Source: a virus
DNA length: 64,000 nucleotides
Virus record (IMG/VR): IMGVR_UViG_3300015370_000568
Span: 32,001 to 96,000 of that record
Reading direction: 5' to 3' (one strand)
The position numbers were made by a program, and so were the translations under genes. Positions 4,376 through 16,989 of the stretch are shown one piece after another. Under the pieces are notes generated by a model. The model was not told the DNA's origin, made no database searches, and saw nothing but the letters and a program-made list of their open reading frames with translations. Positions within the stretch are counted from its first letter, which is position 1. Every line of letters begins with the position of its first letter.

Positions 4376-4791
4376 GAGAACTTGTAGCTCAAAAACAAGA
4401 AGCCTATGGAAACTCTTTCGGCCAGGCATATCGAATCCTAGAAGTTCTATTTCCTCAAGGAATAAGTCCTCAAGACTATCATAAAGTTCTATTAATAGCT
4501 CGAGTAATAGATGAACTCTTCCGGTATGTTACTCTCCCTAATGCTTTTGGAGAATCTCCCTGGAGAGATATTGTAGGCTATGGCCTACTTGAAATTGCTA
4601 ACCAGGAGAATAGTCAAGAATATAGTCCCTCAAAGCTACTTGAAATGACCTCAGATGCTCTTGAGACCACTACACAAGCTCTCAAAATTATCAGACAACT
4701 TGCATCTTCCTCTACAGCCCGGGCTAATATAATGGATATAGAGTATGAGGCCGACAAAGCATTGAAATTAACAGTGGAGAACAGCAATTGA
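4294..4791 (+). CDS. nucleotide-modification-associated domain 1 (DUF1599-like) protein
   Basis: LVAQKQEAYGNSF ... RVIDELFR ... ESPWRDIVGYGLL pattern; AAGGAG SD. Confidence 0.7.
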   Translation: MSDEKETIRDEETSCLPTVWERIGLEIGELVAQKQEAYGNSFGQAYRILEVLFPQGISPQDYHKVLLIARVIDELFRYVTLPNAFGESPWRDIVGYGLLEIANQENSQEYSPSKLLEMTSDALETTTQALKIIRQLASSSTARANIMDIEYEADKALKLTVENSN

Positions 4792-5219
4792 AAATCCGTC
4801 TAACTCATGTGACTAATAGTTCATCTTCTAGCTTTCTCTGTCTAGTAAAGAAAGAGGCTGCTAATGAGGTTCTTGATACATATCCTGAGCCAGTAAGAGA
4901 ACTCCTTCTGGAGGAAGTTGCCCGGGAACTTCTTTGTCTAGGTCAAGAGGCTCTCGCTTTTGTAAATATGTATATTCAGAGCTATTCTCTTCATGAAAGA
5001 GAGATGCAAGATAAAGTCACACAGCTACAAGAAAAATATAAGGATCTTCAGGTCCTTGACTGTTATGATCATAGTATCATAGAGATAATTGACAACTTCA
5101 GTCGAGAAGTAGAAGAAAAATATCCTGGGGCAACTTTTTCTGCTCAAATATTTGATGATAATCCTCCAACCTTTTTCTCTAGAAAGCCAGAAGATGATTC
5201 TAATCAGACCGAGTCATGA
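4788..5219 (+). CDS. NSSSSSF-motif family protein 1
   Basis: Starts MKIRLTHVTNSSSSSF. Confidence 0.8.
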   Translation: MKIRLTHVTNSSSSSFLCLVKKEAANEVLDTYPEPVRELLLEEVARELLCLGQEALAFVNMYIQSYSLHEREMQDKVTQLQEKYKDLQVLDCYDHSIIEIIDNFSREVEEKYPGATFSAQIFDDNPPTFFSRKPEDDSNQTES

Positions 5220-6936
5220 AATTATAGAGACAGCTGGAGACGAAAAGCTTGTCGAGAGAGTAGCTCGTACTTGCTATAAGTCTGAGAGTAGAATTACAGA
5301 TGACTCAGCCAATAAGTTTGTCAAAATGCTTCGAGATAGAGGTCATCATGCAATGCTTGAATTTGGCTGGGTATGTGTGAAATTCATATGTGATCGGGGA
5401 TGCTGCTATGATTCCCAGACAGAGGTTCTAACTCAAGGGGGGTGGAAGTACTTTAAGGATCTCATACAAGAAGATAAATTGGCCTGTCTCAATGACTCTA
5501 ACTATCTAGAATGGCACCAACCTCAGACTCTACAGCAATATGATTTCAAAGGAAAGATGCTCTCCTTTCAGACACCTGTAATTGACCTAATGGTAACTCC
5601 AAACCACAAGATGTGGGTATTTGATTACGACAAGTGTTCTTCAAAGACAGGAATGTGGAAATTTCTAGAAGCGCAAGATATGACCAATGGTCACTATGGA
5701 ATATCCAAGACTGCACATTGGCATGGCGAAGAAAAGACAGTCTGTATTCCAGAGCATCCAACAAGACGACTACAATTTCCGGCACTACAATTTGATCATA
5801 TTTTAACTGCAGACCTATTTGAATTACTAGGTCTCTGGGCTATAAATGGATCTTATAGATATAGCACCGGTTGGCGTAGTAGCTCTTCAATTCAGATCTC
5901 ACTAACTGAGCTTTCTGTATATCAAAAGATCAAATCTCTATGTCAAAACCTGGGACTCCGCTGTACTCGTCATAGAAACGAGCTTCATATTGATAATCTT
6001 CGCTTGTTCCAATTTGTCTTGGAATTATTTGGCCAAGGACCAAGGCGGGTTCCTGACCTTATTAAGGAGGCCTCAGCAGCACAAATTCGCCGCTTTTTGG
6101 ACGGAGTAGTTGCAGGAGATAACTCTATCCAGGCCAGTAATGGACATATAACAATCTACACAGCATCAAAACATTTTGCCGACGGTTTACAAGAATTATA
6201 CCTCAAAGTAGGAGGATTATCTGCGAATATTAAAGTAGAATTTCCAAGAGAAAGCGAAATACTTGCTGGAATTTCTACTTCCCCTAATCAAAAGATATAT
6301 CTTGTCTCTGTCCATAAAAGAAAAAGATCTATACATCGCCTTGATCGCAGATCTGCTGAAGCATTTAGAGAACCAGTCAAGTATAGTGGTAAAGTTTACT
6401 GTGCCACAGTGCCTTTCCATCGACTTTATGTTCGTCGCAATGGTAAAGCCTGCTGGTCTGGTAATTCGCATGAACTAGTAAGACATAGACTAGTATCATT
6501 TGCACAAGAAAGCACAAGATACTGTAATTATAGGGGTGGCATAACATTTGTTATCCCTCCCTGGCTAGATTTACCAGAAGGAGAATATAACCTTGACTCT
6601 GAAGAGGTTCACTGTAATAACAAACTAGTTCCTGGTCTATATAAAGCATCTCATCCAGCTGGAAGATGGTTCTGGCATATGATTGATTCACAAAGTAACT
6701 ACCAGGCTCTTCTTACAGTACAAAACTGGACACCTCAACAAGCCAGGTCAGTTCTTCCAAATAGTCTTAAGACAGAAATAGTATGTGCCGGAAATCTTCG
6801 AGAGTGGCGACATATTCTCCAGCTCCGAACCAGTAAAGCTGCTCATCCTCAAATGCAAGAACTAATGGTCCCATTACTCAAAGACTTTCAAACAAGATGG
6901 CCAGTTTTGTTTGAAGACATAGGAGAAAAATTATGA
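5194..6936 (+). CDS. thyX: flavin-dependent thymidylate synthase ThyX, intein-containing
   Basis: ARTCY, GHHAMLE, CDRG|intein|SHELVRHR..SFAQESTRY, ARSVLPN, NLREWRH..LR, AHPQM. Confidence 0.95.
   Translation: MILIRPSHEIIETAGDEKLVERVARTCYKSESRITDDSANKFVKMLRDRGHHAMLEFGWVCVKFICDRGCCYDSQTEVLTQGGWKYFKDLIQEDKLACLNDSNYLEWHQPQTLQQYDFKGKMLSFQTPVIDLMVTPNHKMWVFDYDKCSSKTGMWKFLEAQDMTNGHYGISKTAHWHGEEKTVCIPEHPTRRLQFPALQFDHILTADLFELLGLWAINGSYRYSTGWRSSSSIQISLTELSVYQKIKSLCQNLGLRCTRHRNELHIDNLRLFQFVLELFGQGPRRVPDLIKEASAAQIRRFLDGVVAGDNSIQASNGHITIYTASKHFADGLQELYLKVGGLSANIKVEFPRESEILAGISTSPNQKIYLVSVHKRKRSIHRLDRRSAEAFREPVKYSGKVYCATVPFHRLYVRRNGKACWSGNSHELVRHRLVSFAQESTRYCNYRGGITFVIPPWLDLPEGEYNLDSEEVHCNNKLVPGLYKASHPAGRWFWHMIDSQSNYQALLTVQNWTPQQARSVLPNSLKTEIVCAGNLREWRHILQLRTSKAAHPQMQELMVPLLKDFQTRWPVLFEDIGEKL
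5404..6465 (+). mobile_element. intein in ThyX (354 aa) with degenerate LAGLIDADG endonuclease
   Basis: Begins CYDSQTEVLT, block B VTPNH, ends VYCATVP...WSGN before Ser; endonuclease motifs LLGLWAINGS and FLDGVVAGDN. Confidence 0.93.
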
Positions 6937-7157
6937 CGCTAGCACTACGAATCCTGAATATAGCAATCGCTCTTGCCTGTCTAGGTAATTTACTTAATGT
7001 CTATCTATCTAATGAGAACTCTATGGCTATTCTCGGATGGACTACTGCATTCATGCTTGCAGTAGTAGCAGTAGCAAACAACGAAAAAAGTAATGTTCTC
7101 AACAAGCTAGCAACAAAAGAAGAAAGAAAGGCCGGTAGTCTTGAAAATCAGACTTAG
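6933..7157 (+). CDS. small two-TM membrane protein
   Basis: Two hydrophobic stretches, basic tail, AGGAG SD. Confidence 0.65.
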   Translation: MTLALRILNIAIALACLGNLLNVYLSNENSMAILGWTTAFMLAVVAVANNEKSNVLNKLATKEERKAGSLENQT

Positions 7158-7617
7158 CCATGTAACTAACTCCTCTTCTAGTAGCTTTATAGTCTTGGAC
7201 CCTCATCTAACTAAAGAGCAGCGAGAGGTTCTCGTAAATTATCCTGGCTTTAAGTTTGAAGAGACTACTAGAGTCTGGCGAATTAGTGTTATCTGTAACG
7301 AAGAAGATGTAAGTAATCTACTTGAAGAGCACAGGATTCCCTATAAAGCCAAGATACACTATAACTGTGAAGCTCACATCTTTGATGGAACTTATCTAGC
7401 AGTAATACCCAACTTTGGAGAAGTAGCTAGTATATATGGACTTCGACATGTCCTTCAAGATAGATATCCTTCCCTAACACCTTATAATGAACAGATTAGA
7501 GGAGCAATCAAGATAGTAAACGTGCTAAAAGGAGAACAGGAACTCACTCCTGAGTTAAGAGAAGAGTTAGTTCAAAGGGAAAAAGGATTAGAAGAAAAGG
7601 AAAGGGAATTGCAATGA
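7141..7617 (+). CDS. NSSSSSF-motif family protein 2
   Basis: Starts MKIRLSHVTNSSSSSF. Confidence 0.8.
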   Translation: MKIRLSHVTNSSSSSFIVLDPHLTKEQREVLVNYPGFKFEETTRVWRISVICNEEDVSNLLEEHRIPYKAKIHYNCEAHIFDGTYLAVIPNFGEVASIYGLRHVLQDRYPSLTPYNEQIRGAIKIVNVLKGEQELTPELREELVQREKGLEEKERELQ

Positions 7618-7985
7618 AGATTCTAAAGTATGGCGGCGACCTTTATACAGCAGCAATAATTACTATTAGAGATGGAGCAATTATTGCCTCAGAAGTTAGA
7701 CAACTCCGAATGGCTTCTGTACGACACGAAGGTGTATCAGGGATGATTCCCCTTCTGACACCTCCCGATTTTTGTAATGCTCCTGTATCAACAATGACTT
7801 TTCCCCTAGCTGCTACTGCATACTATGCTGCAGAGGGAGAAGATGAGAAGACCTACCTGGAAATTATCAAACAGACCGAAGAGATTGAACAGTCTCAGAG
7901 AGCTGCTAAGGCAGGTATTGCTCTAGCTGGTAGTATCCCTAGTGGTCTTCCTTCACCAGGAGCTTTACAGTCAGCCTTCAAGTAG
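7614..7985 (+). CDS. hypothetical protein
   Basis: 123 aa ORF, ATGA coupling. Confidence 0.7.
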   Translation: MKILKYGGDLYTAAIITIRDGAIIASEVRQLRMASVRHEGVSGMIPLLTPPDFCNAPVSTMTFPLAATAYYAAEGEDEKTYLEIIKQTEEIEQSQRAAKAGIALAGSIPSGLPSPGALQSAFK

Positions 7986-7999
7986 AAAGGCTAATTCTT

Positions 8000-8224
8000 A
8001 TGCCAATGTTTCGAATAAGTATTTACTGGGCCGACCCAGATGAAATGACTCAACACCATCTATTAGGCACAGTTACTATCGAGGCAAATAATGTCTGGAT
8101 AGCCAAACAAGATGCTATGGATATACTCTGGGACGAAAGACTTAATGCCTGTGCTATTATTGAAGTAGAAGAAATAGAAGCAGAAAAGGAGGAAGAATGT
8201 CACGAATTGCTCGATCCGACTTAA
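8000..8224 (+). CDS. hypothetical protein
   Basis: 74 aa acidic ORF with SD. Confidence 0.65.
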   Translation: MPMFRISIYWADPDEMTQHHLLGTVTIEANNVWIAKQDAMDILWDERLNACAIIEVEEIEAEKEEECHELLDPT

Positions 8225-8409
8225 TAGAGTTTGTAAGAGAAGATGCTCAACAAAACTGTGACAACCCTTTTAGTAGCTGCTATACCGACTGTACTTCTCA
8301 AGACCAAGCTAACTGTACTTCACTGCTCCTGTATAAGCTTCTAAGCAGTATGTCAGATGCCGAAGTAGAATATCATCTGTATGGCGAGCCAGGACTAGGA
8401 GAATTTTAA
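8197..8409 (+). CDS. hypothetical protein, Cys cluster
   Basis: AGGAGG SD; four Cys. Confidence 0.65.
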   Translation: MSRIARSDLIEFVREDAQQNCDNPFSSCYTDCTSQDQANCTSLLLYKLLSSMSDAEVEYHLYGEPGLGEF

Positions 8410-8411
8410 CG

Positions 8412-8753
8412 ATGAAAATTAGGCTGGCACATGTAACTAACAGCAGCTCTCAGAGCTTCTTTATTTGCAGACCTCTAGAAGAAGAGAATAAACCTATCCT
8501 TCTAGCTGTGGATGTCTCTGCAGAGACCAGGACCTTCCATTCTGAAGAAGAGTATGAAGCTTTCATGGTAGACCATGAATGGATTCCAGAGGAAGATTCA
8601 AAAATCCGGGCTGCATTAAGACAAGGAAAAATCATCGAGCTCGTAGAAGGTGATACAAATGAGTACGGTATTAGCCGAAATATTGGACAGGCCATGAGCA
8701 AAGACTTTCTCTTAACAAATGGTGCATATTTAGTAACTAGAGAGGAAAATTGA
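8412..8753 (+). CDS. NSSSSSF-motif family protein 3
   Basis: Starts MKIRLAHVTNSSSQSF. Confidence 0.8.
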   Translation: MKIRLAHVTNSSSQSFFICRPLEEENKPILLAVDVSAETRTFHSEEEYEAFMVDHEWIPEEDSKIRAALRQGKIIELVEGDTNEYGISRNIGQAMSKDFLLTNGAYLVTREEN

Positions 8754-8755
8754 GT

Positions 8756-9103
8756 ATGAAAATAAGACTTTGTCATGTTACTAATAGCTCATCTTCCTCT
8801 TTCTGTATTGTAGGAATGGGGATTGATAGCTTTCTACAGATTGCTCATAAGCAAGACCCAGAAAAGTATCCAGAAACTTCTGGAGGCTGGGGAGATCAAT
8901 GGTTTGAAGAGCTTGCAGGACAAGACCTAGCAGAAGGCCAAGAGGCAAGCGAAGTCATTGGTCTAGATATTACTAAAATCAAAGAGAATGAAACTCTTGG
9001 CCAGTTTCGCCAAAGAGTCTGTGATAAACTCCTAGAAGCTACAGGGGTTCAACTGACTCCAAACCAACTATATTTCTGTAAGGATAGTTGGTACGATGGC
9101 TAA
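8756..9103 (+). CDS. NSSSSSF-motif family protein 4
   Basis: Starts MKIRLCHVTNSSSSSF at ATG 8756. Confidence 0.8.
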   Translation: MKIRLCHVTNSSSSSFCIVGMGIDSFLQIAHKQDPEKYPETSGGWGDQWFEELAGQDLAEGQEASEVIGLDITKIKENETLGQFRQRVCDKLLEATGVQLTPNQLYFCKDSWYDG

Positions 9104-13268: not shown

Positions 13269-15822
13269 ACTGACTAGACTAACTCGCGGAGGTATGAAAC
13301 TTCGTGGAGTCGAAGGGAAAAAAGAATATGAAGCCCGGCTTACTTATGAATTAGGAGTTATCACACGTTTCCATCTTGAAAGCTACTTTCTCAATGTCTG
13401 GGACTTAGCAGTTCGCTTTGCCAAGAAACAAGGCATCCTACTAGGTCCCGGTAGAGGCAGTGCGCCATCCTCATTAGTTCTATACTGTCTAGGAGTAACT
13501 CACCTTGACCCTATTCAAGAGAAGCTACCATTTGAGCGATTTCTTAATGAGGGGCGTCTAGAAACTGGTCACTTACCAGACGTTGATTTGGATTTTACCA
13601 AAGCTGGCCGGGAGAAAGTAGTCAAGTATCTCATCGAGAAATACGGAAAAGATAATGTCGTTGGTATCGGTACAGTAGGAACTTATGAAGCTAGGTCCTC
13701 AATTAAATCTGCTGCTCGGGCTTTAGATCTCCCCTACATTGTAGGAGAAAAGCTGAATAAGCTTCTCCCACCACCTCTTCATGGGTTCCCTCTATCTCTA
13801 GCTGAGAGCTATGATAAGGTTCCTGAACTCAGAGCTATGAGGTTTAATCCTGAGTTTGAAGGCACAGATGAGAACCAAGTATTAAGTTTAGCTGAACAGT
13901 TCGAAGGACACGTACAAAATGTAGGTCAGCATCCAGCAGGAATAGTTATCTCGCCTGTCCCTGTTGTTAATCTTGCTCCTCTATGTACTGCTAAGAAGTC
14001 AGAGTTTCCTATTGCTCAATGGACAATGGAGACAGTAGAGAAATTAGGGTTCATCAAGTATGATTTACTAGTCATTTCTAACTTAGATATCATTGAGGAT
14101 ACTATTAAGTTAGTTAAAGACCGTCAAGGTATTGAAATAGATATCTATTCTGTGCCAGATGATGACAGAGTTTGGCGAATGCTGAATACAGGACTCCTTT
14201 CTGGTATCTTTCAGCTAGAAGGTTCACCAGGAATGAAGTCCATGGCGACTAGGATTGGAATGTCATCTCGCCAGCATATTTCTGATATCCTAGCCCTATA
14301 TAGACCTGGTCCAGTATCAGCAGGACTATTAGAACAATACATTAGAGTAAAAAGAGGACAAGATACTTCTAAATATCTTCATCCTGGTCTTCAACCTATA
14401 CTAGAAGAAACATACTCAGCTCTAGTTTATCAAGAGCAAGTACTAAGAATTGCCTCCGAACTAGCTGGGTTTAGTCTCATTGATGCAGATATCATGCGAG
14501 ATATTCTGGGCAAGAAAAAGAAAGAAAAAATGCCCGAACAACGAGAAAAGTTTATCTCTGGACTTATTCAGAACTCAGATTTTACTGAAACCAAGGCTAA
14601 TGAACTATTCGATACTATTGAAGTTTATGCCGCGTACTGCTTTAACCGATCACACAGTAGGGCATATGCTCAGCTCTCTTACTGGACAGCCTATCTTAAG
14701 GCTCTCTATCCTCTTGAGTTCATGCTCTCATTGATGACACATCGCAGAAAGAAGTTAGAAGCTTTCCCGCTCTATATTCATGAGTGTAGAGAGCTAGGAT
14801 TAAAAGTAACCCCGCCGGATATTAACGAAAGCGGAGTCAGCTTTTCTCCTATTGGCAATGACACTCTGCGTTGGGGCCTAGGGGCTGTCAAGGGAGTAGG
14901 TAAAGGGGCCAAGACTATTATTCAAGAAAGAGCCCAGGGTCCATTCAAAAGTGTAGCTGACTTTGTCTTGCGAACACAAGGTCTAAATAGAAAGGTCTAT
15001 GAAGCTCTGATTAAAGCCGGGACTGTTGATTCAATTGTAAAGAACAGAGGTCTAGCATTAGCTGAGTTGGACGCTGCATTGAAACTGAGAGATGATGTTC
15101 CCCGTTATCAAGCAAAGCTTGCTACTTATGAGAAGCGCTTGCTTCAAGCAGAAGAACGACTGATTGAGATAGATAAATTAGTCGCCGCTAATACTCCTAA
15201 ATCTAAGGTTCCTAAACCTTTCAAAGAACCAGAGAAGCCTAAAGCTCCTGAACTCACCGTCTTTGATAGTGAGCCTTCCAGTCAGACAGAAGACCTCAAC
15301 TGGGAAAAAGAACTACTAGGAACTTATGTCTCAAGTCATCCTGCTGCTCTAGCTTATGTTGAGACCCAACCAATTGATACAGCAATTGCTGAGGCTATTG
15401 ATGGTCAAGGTATTCAACTATCGGGAGTAATTGATGAGGTAACTGTTAAGAGGTCAAAAGCAGGGAGACAATTTGCAACAGGTACTCTTAGTGATAGTAC
15501 TGGGCAAATACGTTTCCTTTGTTTTGAAGATACAGTTAAGGCTCGCCGGGCTCTATTAAAAACTGGAAGTCTTGTAAAACTTACAGGAAAGATACAACGA
15601 AGAGAAGAAGCAGAAGACCCAGAAATAATTGTTGGAGATGTCCATATTCTAGGTAAAAAACATGAGACCAGACAAGCAATGAGTATCAAGTCAGATAGGA
15701 TCCTTACGCCTACGGGAGTAAGAGACTTCCTTGAAGAGACAGAATGGCATAGACGACCAGACCCCTTCTCTCTTACGATTCAAATGCAATCAGGAACACG
15801 AGTAATTCTTACACGAGGTTAA
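13249..15822 (+). CDS. dnaE: DNA polymerase III alpha, palm/fingers/HhH/OB part
   Basis: GPGRGSA, FERFLN, PDVDLDF catalytic motif, HPAG, KYDLL, FQLE, LYRPGP, YQEQ, FNRSH, PDINES, OB domain. Confidence 0.95.
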   Translation: MMDPVTKLTRLTRGGMKLRGVEGKKEYEARLTYELGVITRFHLESYFLNVWDLAVRFAKKQGILLGPGRGSAPSSLVLYCLGVTHLDPIQEKLPFERFLNEGRLETGHLPDVDLDFTKAGREKVVKYLIEKYGKDNVVGIGTVGTYEARSSIKSAARALDLPYIVGEKLNKLLPPPLHGFPLSLAESYDKVPELRAMRFNPEFEGTDENQVLSLAEQFEGHVQNVGQHPAGIVISPVPVVNLAPLCTAKKSEFPIAQWTMETVEKLGFIKYDLLVISNLDIIEDTIKLVKDRQGIEIDIYSVPDDDRVWRMLNTGLLSGIFQLEGSPGMKSMATRIGMSSRQHISDILALYRPGPVSAGLLEQYIRVKRGQDTSKYLHPGLQPILEETYSALVYQEQVLRIASELAGFSLIDADIMRDILGKKKKEKMPEQREKFISGLIQNSDFTETKANELFDTIEVYAAYCFNRSHSRAYAQLSYWTAYLKALYPLEFMLSLMTHRRKKLEAFPLYIHECRELGLKVTPPDINESGVSFSPIGNDTLRWGLGAVKGVGKGAKTIIQERAQGPFKSVADFVLRTQGLNRKVYEALIKAGTVDSIVKNRGLALAELDAALKLRDDVPRYQAKLATYEKRLLQAEERLIEIDKLVAANTPKSKVPKPFKEPEKPKAPELTVFDSEPSSQTEDLNWEKELLGTYVSSHPAALAYVETQPIDTAIAEAIDGQGIQLSGVIDEVTVKRSKAGRQFATGTLSDSTGQIRFLCFEDTVKARRALLKTGSLVKLTGKIQRREEAEDPEIIVGDVHILGKKHETRQAMSIKSDRILTPTGVRDFLEETEWHRRPDPFSLTIQMQSGTRVILTRG

Positions 15823-15823
15823 T

Positions 15824-15964
15824 ATGTCCGAACAAAAGAAACCTGACAATGGTATACCTCTCTTTCCTTTACTATGTGCCGGGGTAATTATTACCTCAAT
15901 AGCTCTTCCTGCTCTGCTAATTGCTGGAGGACTCTATCTACTTACCAGAGGTAAAGATGACTGA
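15824..15964 (+). CDS. 46 aa single-TM membrane protein (not in ORF track)
   Basis: GAGGT SD, MSEQKKPDNGIPLFPLLCAGVIITSIALPALLIAGGLYLLTRGKDD*; fills the gap exactly. Confidence 0.7.
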   Translation: MSEQKKPDNGIPLFPLLCAGVIITSIALPALLIAGGLYLLTRGKDD

Positions 15965-16307
15965 CATTATTGCTTACATTGCCGGTCCCTACCGAGCTAA
16001 GACAGAGTGGGAAGTAAACAGGAACATTGAACGAGCTAGACTAGTAGCTGCAAGAGTAGCAAAGCTCGGCCTTATGTTCATCTGTCCACATCTGAATAGT
16101 GCTCATATGGGAGGCACTGAGCCAGAAGAGATAGGTCAAGATTTCTGGCTAGAAGGATACCTAGAAATTCTTAGCCGCTGCGACTTAATTGTCTTTACAG
16201 AAGGGTGGGAAGATTCACAAGGCTCAGTAGCTGAAGAGGGACTAGCCCATCAGCTAGGCCTCAACATCTACTATTCAATTGAGGAGCTAGAAAAAGAAGG
16301 GGTGTAG
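15957..16307 (+). CDS. DUF4406 / nucleoside 2-deoxyribosyltransferase-like protein
   Basis: YIAGPY, FICPH, LSRCD, GWEDSQGSVAE. Confidence 0.8.
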   Translation: MTDIIAYIAGPYRAKTEWEVNRNIERARLVAARVAKLGLMFICPHLNSAHMGGTEPEEIGQDFWLEGYLEILSRCDLIVFTEGWEDSQGSVAEEGLAHQLGLNIYYSIEELEKEGV

Positions 16308-16314
16308 TGAAAGC

Positions 16315-16989
16315 ATGGAAGAAACAATCAGAGACCTCTATCGAGAAGTAGATAACTGTCAAGACTGTGAGTTATATCTCCTACATTCTCGTACACCTAG
16401 ACCTAGACCTGTAGGTAATCCTCGGTCTAAGGTTATGGTTATTGGTGAGTGTCCAGGAGAAGTAGAAGAGCGACTCTCTAAAGTCTTTGTAGGTCCTGCT
16501 GGCCAATTATTAGGGAGAATGCTACAGGCCATTGATGTTGATGTCTATGAAGACGTCTACCTTTGTAACGTAGCTAAGTGTAGGCCAGCATCAGCATCAG
16601 GGTCAGGACGACAGAATGACACACCTATGCTTGAGTACAGACAGATTTGTACCAAGAAGTTTCTATCCCGTGAGATGGATATTATCAGGCCCAAAGCTAT
16701 TATTGCTCTAGGTAAGTCCGCTACGATTGCTTTGACTGGCCACCCAACGACTGTAACAATGCGGCGGCTTCTAGGGCTTCACCCCCCGACAACAGACGTA
16801 AAGCTTCAAGATAGAGTACTTTGGAGGACACCAGATAATTCAGAAGACCTAGAATGGATATACGCAATTTATCATCCAAGCATGTTTTTACATACAAGTA
16901 GTGATGAACAAAAGACAATTGAACTTAAGAGGGTACAATGGGAACATCTAAAAGAAATCGCAAAGTTACTAAATCAAATCAAAGGGTAA
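16315..16989 (+). CDS. udg: uracil-DNA glycosylase family 4
   Basis: CQDC, IGECPG..E, FVGPAG, NVAKCRP, YHPS. Confidence 0.92.
   Translation: MEETIRDLYREVDNCQDCELYLLHSRTPRPRPVGNPRSKVMVIGECPGEVEERLSKVFVGPAGQLLGRMLQAIDVDVYEDVYLCNVAKCRPASASGSGRQNDTPMLEYRQICTKKFLSREMDIIRPKAIIALGKSATIALTGHPTTVTMRRLLGLHPPTTDVKLQDRVLWRTPDNSEDLEWIYAIYHPSMFLHTSSDEQKTIELKRVQWEHLKEIAKLLNQIKG

Follow-up and report, generated by a model that had tools for sequence, protein, structure and literature searches.

Why should several small phage proteins that otherwise have nothing recognizable in common all begin with the same 16 residues? The question arose from a sequence-only reading of the window, the 64,000-nucleotide stretch of viral DNA analyzed here, which had picked out four open reading frames with such a start. 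All four exist as it described them, and a six-frame regular-expression scan of the whole 131,084-bp genome added two more upstream of the window (Table 1): among 10 loose matches, six were full tags at the start of an ORF and the other four lacked the tag. Aligned six ways, the tag reads MKIRLxHVTNSSS[SQ]SF. Fourteen of its 16 positions are invariant, only position 6 (T, A, S or C) and position 14 (S or Q) vary, and every copy starts at residue 1 and contains VTNSSS and F16. The start of gene C overlaps the stop codon of the preceding gene (TTGA), the ORF list begins gene F at a TTG at 8750, two codons before the tag-aligned ATG, and the public gene call for D is a 140-aa form without the tag.

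Table 1. Tagged genes, their tags and the radical SAM/SPASM enzyme gene of this phage (window positions unless marked as genome positions).
Feature	Position	Strand	Remarks
Tagged gene C, 143 aa	4788..5219	+	TTG start
Tag of C, MKIRLTHVTNSSSSSF	4788..4835	+	16 codons
Tagged gene D, 158 aa	7141..7617	+	TTG start
Tag of D, MKIRLSHVTNSSSSSF	7141..7188	+	
Tagged gene E, 113 aa	8412..8753	+	ATG start; singleton body
Tag of E, MKIRLAHVTNSSSQSF	8412..8459	+	sole copy with Q at position 14
Tagged gene F, 115 aa	8756..9103	+	counted from tag-aligned ATG
Tag of F, MKIRLCHVTNSSSSSF	8756..8803	+	
Tagged ORF, 101 aa	genome 26663-26968		about 5-5.3 kb before window
Tagged ORF, 169 aa	genome 29147-29656		about 2.3-2.9 kb before window
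Radical SAM/SPASM enzyme gene	genome 5281-6450		profile match at 5521-6441, E 3.5e-48

Beyond the tag the six proteins diverge: when residues 18 onward were compared all against all by blastp in a six-sequence database, no pair was better than E = 0.14. Within the tag, at least two synonymous codons are used at 13 of the 16 positions, with Ser encoded by both AGY and TCN, and mean pairwise nucleotide identity is 0.69 across its 48 nt versus 0.31 across the next 48 nt. Because the codons are scrambled synonymously, the conservation must lie at the level of the peptide, in agreement with the earlier proposal that selection acts there and not on a DNA or RNA element. The same reading called the protein bodies acidic, which holds for five of the six (pI 4.3–5.3, gene C being at 4.3); the remaining one is near neutral (pI 6.6). 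The six genes are spread over 14.4 kb amid DNA-metabolism genes; those around them encode an RNA ligase, a kinase, a vWA protein, NAD synthase, ThyX and RecA, and are not head genes. The vWA gene lies directly upstream of tagged gene B, one of the two before the window, and a vWA gene also adjoins a tagged gene in Citrobacter phage Maroon, a cultured carrier of the tag and of the enzyme described below.

The tag is found well beyond this phage. A search with a 36-position profile of the tag, one of the checks suggested at the outset, matched 23,673 representative proteins at E ≤ 0.001, a count that was inspected for the best 150 only and may include Ser-rich false matches; in 134 of those 150, a single tag sits at residue 1. 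A PHROG of unknown function, phrog_7397, matches 60 of the best 150 through its first 29 positions and window protein D weakly (E 0.044, residues 1–22). No Pfam family, sulfatases included, matched the four window proteins or the 150 tagged proteins. When 170 unique tagged proteins from 64 viral loci and this genome were clustered without regard to the tag, they fell into 37 body clusters, with at least 12 unrelated small bodies bearing the tag, and hhalign of the tag-stripped clusters gave more than 50% probability for 2 of 91 pairs and no profile similarity for the other 89. In this clustering, the body of C is a singleton with no relatives found, that of D has no relative apart from itself, and that of F (body cluster 5) has relatives in six other viral loci. 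Tagged proteins range from 80 to 1062 aa overall (101–169 aa in this phage), and nine large bacterial ones include four with BspA-LRR domains and two with BRCT domains. As the sequence-only reading had supposed, then, the tag is portable, and it is an N-terminal peptide rather than a fold.

Asn10 and Ser11 never vary in the 546 tags collected from 165 loci, while position 7 is F in 514, Y in 26 and H in 6, followed by V/I and T. All six His7 tags are those of this phage (none of 540 elsewhere), so His was correctly taken for a local variant. At position 6, where the consensus is D or G, this phage has T, A, S or C; its tag form is a lineage-specific variant.

What accompanies the tag? In a survey of the neighbors of 65 tag loci, the only gene common to most encodes a radical SAM/SPASM protein (54 of 65; the next family reaches 30), and no protease or exporter is common to them. 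From the other side, 79 viral loci were found through the enzyme, and in 74 of them one or more tagged ORFs lie within 10 kb, most often immediately downstream; where bacterial loci were collected by the tag alone, the enzyme is encoded within 8 kb in 39 of 43. The association spans phages of 35–500 kb as well as bacterial contigs in which the unit is simply the enzyme and one tagged gene. In this phage, the enzyme gene lies outside the window, about 26 kb before it and 20 kb before the first tagged gene; five complete 174–180 kb genomes and phage Maroon also have a distant layout, the enzyme in complete T4-like genomes being about 20 kb from the tagged genes. Each of the five complete genomes that lack an enzyme near the tags encodes one elsewhere. 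The exceptions are one 198-kb record, 84% complete, with two tags and no enzyme match, and one enzyme locus with full flanks (L124) that is without a tag; for a sister form of the tag (GFVSN...), the enzyme lies within 10 kb in only 42 of 75 loci. Genetic linkage between the tag and one radical SAM/SPASM enzyme family holds from either starting point.

This genome contains exactly one orthologue of the tag-linked enzyme (31% identity to a locus orthologue, E 2e-50; A5 family in our naming); two further radical SAM genes in the genome belong to different kinds. The protein has the CX3CX2C motif, with the three cluster Cys and the SPASM Cys conserved, and keeps C283, C302, C320 and a C-x2-C-x5-C-x3-C tail. 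Pfam recognizes the radical SAM core on the phage’s own enzyme (PF04055, 41.8 bits; cut-off 29.5) and the SPASM domain on its orthologues (PF13186, 24.0–24.7 bits; cut-off 21.5), reporting no SPASM domain on the phage’s own copy. None of the 32 NCBIfam matches comes near its cut-off (the best, GeoRSP, at 62.3 bits versus 400), and no named maturase family in NCBIfam was reached; the nearest models, GeoRSP, ScmE, WgkB and mycofactocin, are all peptide maturases. No RRE domain was detected, and a short N-terminal strand is predicted in its place.

Complex prediction on our own alignments placed this phage’s tag on its own enzyme with an ipSAE of 0.85 (0.84–0.86 between runs), the best of three controls reaching 0.02. 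At least 69% of the contacts agree between runs, and the pLDDT of the partner is 53–60. The mark that the pair passed is reached by 58 of 80 solved complexes and by 2 of 110 mismatched pairs, although likeness to solved SPASM enzyme–peptide complexes may have contributed in part. The 65 predicted interface residues contain 31 of the 88 enzyme columns conserved at 90% or more; the columns that changed in this phage’s enzyme are not enriched there (4 of 24).

Tag variants are genome-specific: in 84 of 88 loci with several tags, all copies have the same residue at position 6, where shuffling gives a mean of 30.8 loci. Enzyme residue 199 is Lys or Arg in 88 of 88 cases with Asp6 and in only 20 of 60 with Gly6. 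These counts come from related sequences and may reflect no more than about three independent losses; Arg199 is retained in two Gly6 lineages. Judged from these alignments, Asp6 of the tag is paired with a basic residue at position 199 of the enzyme. Residues 199 and 147 are both predicted to touch tag residue 7, and this phage, the sole carrier of x6-His7 in the sample, has Gln199, together with Thr147 where 97% of orthologues have Asn.

Our preferred reading, which we hold with moderate confidence, is that a single dedicated radical SAM/SPASM enzyme recognizes the tag as a portable handle and most likely then modifies it. Residues 2–6 of the free N-terminus would add a beta strand to a conserved strand in the enzyme’s N-terminal extension (residues 50–54), and residues 7 to about 16 (aromatic-V-T-N-S-S-S-S-S-aromatic) would enter the cleft between the radical SAM barrel and the SPASM domain, leaving the folded body outside. 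A radical-based covalent change would follow, most likely within residues 7–15, such that one enzyme would mature many unrelated client proteins, six of them in this phage. The binding mode is that of the predicted complex; we infer that the tag is covalently modified, as well as where and how, the candidates being conversion of Ser to formylglycine as in anSME, epimerization, or a crosslink from the position-7 aromatic. The earlier reading had offered a docking strand for one host target; the evidence favors the phage-encoded enzyme instead.

Parts of this scheme have precedents. SPASM maturases act on precursors that share a leader, as in PqqE–PqqA, SuiB–SuiA, SkfB–SkfA and MftC–MftA, and as there, one SPASM-type radical SAM enzyme is coupled here to several substrates with a common N-terminal sequence that differ beyond it. 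Unlike these RiPP precursors, the clients are folded proteins with confident predicted folds, not short peptides, and the likely reaction site falls within the invariant part, in contrast to the variable core of RiPPs. We rejected a short RiPP precursor whose variable core is modified and released, given the length of the clients and the lack of a protease or exporter shared by the tag loci. The anSME/AtsB enzymes, also radical SAM/SPASM proteins, work on whole proteins, changing a Ser (or Cys) of a short motif close to the N-terminus, and solved anSME structures hold the peptide between the barrel and the SPASM domain, where the tag is predicted to lie as well. The anSME/AtsB–sulfatase pair itself was rejected: its (C/S)-x-(P/A)-x-R motif is absent from the tag and the clients have no sulfatase match in Pfam. 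The present system also differs in having many unrelated clients per enzyme, and its enzyme is not an anSME by NCBIfam. Triceptides (three-residue cyclophanes) are made by rSAM/SPASM enzymes of the XyeB/FxsB/HxsB type at an aromatic-x-x motif, in which the aromatic precedes the crosslinked residue by two positions; tag position 7 is always aromatic, and no model of that type is among the NCBIfam matches listed (25 of 32).

Two published systems share further features with this one. The vWA–MoxR ternary conflict systems with FxSxx-COOH peptides and radical SAM/SPASM genes (Kaur, Burroughs, Iyer, Aravind 2020, PMC7159879) also pair a SPASM radical SAM gene with variable proteins that have a short Ser-containing peptide conserved at one terminus, and they contain vWA proteins. 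There, the conserved piece is C-terminal with another motif, and the systems include a metallopeptidase and STAND/AP-ATPase effectors; neither kind of protein was seen here. In the KpAvs2–Avap1–Avap2 phage-defense operon, a radical SAM protein of unknown role, Avap1, likewise accompanies a small accessory protein, Avap2, of the DUF6375 family (Bechon et al. 2024, PMC11564622). We found no match to DUF6375 (PF19902) among the 150 tagged proteins, the four window proteins, or the tagged genes of five genomes that carry the tag; the single hit in those five genomes (E 0.087) was in a 1154-aa frame away from the tagged genes.

The enzyme, or a complex containing it, might instead merely grip the tag and act on the variable body or on a third molecule that the client carries in, or it might be a non-catalytic hub or chaperone gathering the clients. 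We regard this as unlikely, though it has arguments in its favor. RiPP enzymes usually recognize the conserved leader and modify the variable part, which counts against modification within the tag; the strand with which residues 2–6 are predicted to pair is outside the barrel; and some body families have invariant residues of their own (in the B type, D144, E153 and H169 plus a C-terminal SHH). However, the bodies have no common feature for a single active site to recognize, the most invariant tag residues (T9, N10, S11–S13, S15) are predicted to lie inside a cleft of invariant enzyme residues, and mere gripping would not need five invariant Ser.

It is improbable that the tag is unrelated to the enzyme and is an address label, for T4-like capsid packaging, export, proteolysis or host docking, with the linkage reflecting only a shared early-gene module. 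The T4 capsid targeting sequence of internal proteins, which the scaffold recognizes and the prohead protease cleaves off at an L-x-E site, is also a short N-terminal peptide common to otherwise unrelated, fast-evolving phage proteins. The constant placement of the tag at the extreme N-terminus, as in targeting signals, the 20-kb separation here and in T4-like genomes, and the incomplete record with tags and no enzyme match would all suit a label. Yet the two-way linkage extends across phages of 35–500 kb and to two-gene bacterial modules, no other neighbor is shared, the complete genomes lacking a nearby enzyme carry it elsewhere, the complex prediction passes with controls failing, and Asp6 tracks enzyme residue 199. 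T4-type targeting in particular looks unlikely, as no copy has L-x-E in residues 1–20 and the neighbors are not head genes. The tag also lacks the hydrophobic core of a signal peptide, and nothing ties it to head, protease or secretion genes, so the capsid-packaging or export signal first suggested for it found no support.

A single fast-evolving family, in which the 16-mer supplies the opening strand plus a Ser-rich loop, for an active site or for phosphate binding, to bodies that have since diverged, is very improbable. Structure prediction had been set beforehand as the test that could overturn the portable-leader idea, and AlphaFold models of two paralogues (pLDDT 85 and 80) matched no known family. 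In both, the fold begins at residue 14 and residues 14–19 form the first strand, as such a family would have it, and the conserved Asp, Glu and His of B-type members could form a site. On the other hand, residues 1–11, though the best-conserved columns, are unmodeled (pLDDT below 50), secondary-structure elements follow a different order in the two models, and neither the near-absence of profile similarity between body clusters nor the presence of the tag on LRR solenoids and BRCT proteins fits one family. Least probable of all is enzyme-independent self-processing at the invariant Asn10-Ser11, by Asn cyclization or an N-to-O acyl shift, in line with the self-cleaving site among the initial suggestions: Asn-dependent backbone cleavage is established chemistry, but it leaves the enzyme linkage, the other invariant Ser, the flanking aromatics and the covariation with the enzyme unexplained.

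Our literature searches found no description of such a system. In its widest form, the reading of the tag as an enzyme-read handle can be offered tentatively: a virus-encoded, multi-client modification system in which the enzyme would thread the free N-termini of unrelated phage proteins, and some bacterial ones, and alter the aromatic-V-T-N-S-S-S-S-S segment, switching the proteins on or protecting them during infection, with enzyme and tag co-evolving as lock and key. That the clients are small, acidic, early-type phage proteins suggests a role in host takeover or counter-defense. If the lock-and-key idea is true, Asp6 would go with Lys199 in most lineages and x6-His7 with Gln199 and Thr147 here, and each lineage would read only its own clients.

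The four window ORFs (C to F in the table below) that a sequence-only reading had singled out for a shared start, the 16-residue tag MKIRLxHVTNSSS[SQ]SF, are all present at the listed positions, and scanning all six frames of the 131,084-bp genome, of which the window spans bases 32001-96000, adds two more copies, A and B. The six copies agree at 14 of the 16 tag positions; Leu5 and His7 occur in every copy and position 6 is free. Past the tag, as that reading had it, similarity ends: no pair of bodies (the remainder of each protein) reaches E < 0.14 beyond residue 17 in a six-sequence blastp comparison, and five of the six proteins have acidic bodies. Because the codons vary synonymously (two or more at 13 of the 16 tag positions) and DNA identity between copies is only 69% over the 48-nt tag, versus 31% over the next 48 nt, we agree that selection acts at the level of the peptide.

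Coordinates of the tagged genes, the radical SAM genes and their counterparts in a cultured phage (L-numbers are locus labels)
Feature	Position	Remarks
Tagged gene A	genome 26663-26968	101 aa; upstream of window; six-frame scan
Tagged gene B	genome 29147-29656 (L001:9147-9656)	169 aa; upstream of window; six-frame scan
Tagged gene C	window 4788	TTG start overlapping preceding stop (TTGA)
Tagged gene D	window 7141	TTG start; public gene call is a 140-aa form without the tag
Tagged gene E	window 8412	singleton body
Tagged gene F	window 8756	body with orthologues in other phages
Tag-linked radical SAM/SPASM enzyme	genome 5281-6450	20 kb before gene A, outside window
RlmN/Cfr-like radical SAM gene	genome 19724-20602 (L003:1366-2244) or 15608-16456 (L194:608-1456)	79.5 bits vs cut-off 290
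282-aa radical SAM protein	the other of those two genes	no NCBIfam match
CPT_Maroon_117	70390-70902	Citrobacter phage Maroon MH823906.1; tagged, "hypothetical protein"; SHH end like B
CPT_Maroon_112	66488-66955	Citrobacter phage Maroon MH823906.1; tagged, "hypothetical protein"
CPT_Maroon_163	91492-92643	Citrobacter phage Maroon MH823906.1; "putative radical SAM protein"

Pfam, PHROGs and NCBIfam gave no match at or near cut-off for the four window proteins. Scanning IMG/VR with an alignment of the six tagged proteins yielded 64 loci, each with one to seven ORFs starting MK[IVF][RK]x[DG]FVTNSSSSSF, and 170 unique tagged proteins fell into 37 body clusters. Once the tag was removed, only 2 of the 91 pairs among the 14 larger clusters exceeded 50% hhalign probability, the other pairs staying below 10%. 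Orthologues in other phages were found for A and B as well as F; C and D, like E, are singletons. Searching 1.84 billion representative proteins (50% identity) with a 36-position tag profile gave 23,673 matches at E <= 0.001 and 180 at 1e-10. We inspected the best 150 of the 23,673: 134 of them bear a single tag at residue 1, Pfam names no family among them (two stray matches), and phrog_7397, of unknown function, matches 60. Eleven of the best profile matches (representative proteins P0003-P0013) carry two tags, the second Met-initial and located at residue 32-187; these may be tandem fusions, or the gene calls may run across a (possibly recoded) stop that separates two neighbouring tagged genes. 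Tagged bacterial proteins reach 1062 aa, and among nine large ones scanned, four contain BspA-type LRR and two contain BRCT domains. Searches from single proteins returned little: a word-based homologue search with B found one relative besides B itself (P0002, 32% identity), the same search with the D body found only D, viral contigs yielded no close relative of P0002, and an atlas look-up placed B within unnamed viral clusters and gave no match for D at 0.9 or above.

The tag is portable and is not a fold. The earlier idea of a portable leader is thus borne out by the unrelated bodies and the LRR and BRCT proteins; the functions offered for that leader, such as capsid packaging or export, are not supported. 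His7 had also been suspected of being a local variant, and among 546 tags from 165 loci it is indeed seen only in this phage; among the 159 tags within the best 150 of the 23,673 profile matches, it occurs once.

Most tag loci share a neighbor. When the genes around all 65 were clustered, a SPASM protein of approximately 354 residues, hereafter the enzyme, was present at 54, the next most frequent family being present at 30. Starting instead from the enzyme, at least one tagged ORF lies within 10 kb in 74 of 79 new viral loci, mostly directly downstream; of the five tag-less loci, three break off less than 500 bp past the enzyme gene, a fourth is a contig of 7.2 kb and the fifth is full-flanked. 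Tags accompany 20 of the 21 enzyme clusters (70% identity, single linkage). The linkage therefore holds in both directions, and it extends to 43 bacterial and MAG contigs retrieved through the tag alone: in 39 of them the enzyme lies no more than 8 kb away, and often the two genes form a unit by themselves; tag-bearing contigs of this kind are mostly from Clostridia, with Deltaproteobacteria, Sulfuricurvum and others also represented. Among searchable records of tag loci with no enzyme nearby, two have it elsewhere in the record and two are 11-26% fragments; in one 84%-complete tag-bearing record of 198 kb, no enzyme was found. At four loci with Lys-type tags (MKIKxDF[VI]TNSSS...; L041, L042, L043 and L046), the usual enzyme is absent within 6 kb and a different, peptide-maturase-type radical SAM gene lies about 5 kb downstream (L041:11130-12212), which may be an alternative partner for them.

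A sister form of the tag, MKIRxGFVSNSSSSSF, has the enzyme within 10 kb at 42 of 75 loci, and the five complete 174-180 kb genomes of this form with no enzyme nearby all carry it about 20 kb off, a distance that resembles the layout of our phage. Citrobacter phage Maroon is a cultured case. Homologues of its enzyme, CPT_Maroon_163, occur across Klebsiella, Enterobacter, Cronobacter, Citrobacter and Escherichia phages (171 records), of which Maroon was the one in which we looked for tags: the 8 kb around its radical SAM gene contain none, and two tagged genes lie about 20 kb away. Between these two lies a 749-aa protein whose start is of the vWA type (L272:4489-8903). In our phage, a 237-aa vWA protein (L001:8462-9175; genome 28462-29656 including B) overlaps the start of B by 29 nt. 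A tag-vWA-tag layout recurs, with one of the flanking Maroon genes being of the B type. A tblastn search of 50,697 phage records with an A-type protein, with the low-complexity filter on, gave no match.

The phage itself encodes exactly one orthologue of the enzyme, 31% identical to a locus enzyme (E 2e-50), with a 41.8-bit match to PF04055, a canonical CX3CX2C motif (cluster cysteines C81, C85 and C88) and its SPASM cysteines intact. No NCBIfam family reaches its cut-off on the enzyme, the nearest models being peptide maturases. In the enzyme alignment, most orthologues have widened cluster motifs (C-x7-C-x6-C or C-x5-C-x3-C); the canonical spacing is shared with only two others, both of which lack the last SPASM cysteines. 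No array of tagged genes follows the enzyme gene in this genome: A to F are dispersed among genes for RNA ligase, an AAA_33 kinase, vWA, NAD synthase, intein-bearing ThyX and RecA. The flavin-dependent ThyX (PF02511; window 5152-6936, plus strand) is split by an intein-like insert, in which residues 311-363 form a LAGLIDADG_3 homing-endonuclease domain. Elsewhere in this genome, a GC-rich island (L001:11175-12245; genome 31175-32245, to window 245), set in a 41% GC background, has long overlapping ORFs on both strands and a Pro/Arg/Gly-rich 356-aa frame. Of the two genes at L001:1010-1909 (genome 21010-21909) and L001:3154-4377 (genome 23154-24377), one encodes a protein made mostly of A-N-L-S-x pentapeptide repeats, and a 407-aa protein from this same pair has a sequence resembling WGR followed by a PARP-type catalytic domain.

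We predicted a complex between this phage's enzyme (15-row alignment) and the N-terminal 36 residues of C (69-row alignment). The ipSAE was 0.85 (0.84-0.86 over three runs), whereas none of three controls scored above 0.02; at least 69% of contacts agreed between runs, and the pLDDT of the partner was 53-60. In the tool's calibration, 58 of 80 solved complexes came up to that mark, as did 2 of 110 mismatched pairs, counts that are only approximate here because we supplied our own alignments. The prediction supports, rather than demonstrates, binding of the tag by the enzyme, and likeness to solved SPASM enzyme–peptide complexes may contribute to it. The model pairs tag residues 2-5 with enzyme residues 51-54 and has tag residues 1-21 lining a cleft formed by enzyme residues 120-123, 147-149, 168-171, 199-203, 231-236, 276-283, 297-304 and 320-322. 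The predicted interface comprises 65 residues (17% of the enzyme) and includes 31 of the 88 enzyme columns with conservation of 90% or more. Tag residue 7 is predicted to contact enzyme residues 147, 168, 169 and 199; this phage's enzyme has Gln199, and Thr147 where 97% of orthologues have Asn. Of the 24 conserved columns at which this enzyme differs, 4 lie in the predicted interface, which is no enrichment.

Variation at tag position 6 bears on the same pairing. That position is homogeneous within 84 of 88 multi-tag loci (shuffle mean 30.8, maximum 41), a pattern to which shared ancestry of the paralogues could add. Where the tags have Asp6, all 88 enzymes have Lys or Arg at position 199; where they have Gly6, 20 of 60 do and 8 of 60 have Asp or Glu, with the caveat that independent events are few because the sequences are related, and Arg199 is retained in two Gly6 lineages. 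By mutual information, 6 of the 25 columns ranked highest for tag position 6 fall in the interface (4.2 expected), a weak signal confounded by kinship, and after more lineages were added, only the residue-199 pattern held. The uniformity of tags within a genome and the 6/199 pattern are independent of each other, and both fit a single, genome-specific reader.

AlphaFold models of B (17-row alignment) and A (25-row alignment) have pLDDT values of 85 and 80, respectively; in both, residues 1-11 fall below 50 and the fold opens with a strand at residue 14. The B model had no Foldseek match in the PDB at E <= 0.001 and a best VIA-align Z of 5.8, through helices only; for A, the best Z was 6.4, to a generic ACT/ferredoxin-type alpha/beta sandwich. 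These comparisons with known structures name no characterised family, and they do not establish that either fold is novel. The models of A and B did not reveal one ordinary, already characterised fold, which the sequence-only reading had set against its own proposal. Given these folds, the LRR and BRCT fusions and the complex prediction, we dropped the reading of the Ser run as a PP-loop or other phosphate-binding loop. In their body alignment, B-type proteins have an invariant Asp (D144), an invariant Glu (E153, in L-E-H) and a C-terminal [IL]-S-H-H-COOH, and 23 members of a 250-aa body family end in N-H-M-G; judging from conservation, these residues could form a metal or active site of the bodies' own, with no known fold matched.

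Neither the tag motif nor radical SAM/SPASM in phages led to a description of this system in the main text of open-access papers and bioRxiv, and among the papers listed there for the T4-like carrier phages and radical SAM, no title or abstract opening ties the enzyme to tagged proteins. The nearest systems we found in print are FxSxx C-terminal peptides, which accompany rSAM/SPASM genes in vWA ternary systems (PMC7159879), and the KpAvs2 operon, where a radical SAM protein occurs alongside DUF6375 (PMC11564622). Kinship of the tagged genes with Avap2 was rejected: DUF6375 (PF19902) did not match them in five tag-bearing genomes.

The best explanation for these observations, and in our view a fairly probable one, is that the tag serves the phage-encoded radical SAM/SPASM enzyme as a handle for docking and, probably, for modification. 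Going by the model, the N-terminal strand of the tag would pair with a strand of the enzyme and residues 7-16 would thread into the cleft, and we infer that a covalent radical modification takes place within the invariant aromatic-V-T-N-S-S-S-S-S stretch. Known SPASM chemistry offers several candidates: conversion of Ser to formylglycine as in anSME, epimerisation, or a crosslink from the always-aromatic residue 7. For the role of the clients, we would hazard a guess at host takeover or counter-defence. The system is best read as SPASM maturase logic applied to whole proteins by way of an N-terminal tag, and as widespread.

If modification of the tag by the enzyme is real, the system would parallel RiPP maturation at the protein level and add a new substrate class for SPASM enzymes. 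Judging from the 23,673 representative tagged proteins (50% identity; best 150 inspected), it would be carried by very many phages and would act on proteins that form a sizeable share of phage 'dark matter', giving thousands of hypothetical proteins their first biochemical handle; the tag could also serve as a short, genetically encoded site for site-specific protein chemistry. The proposal is testable in culture: the enzyme is present in cultured T4-like phages of Citrobacter, Klebsiella, Enterobacter, Cronobacter and Escherichia, and at least one of these phages, Maroon, has two tagged proteins.
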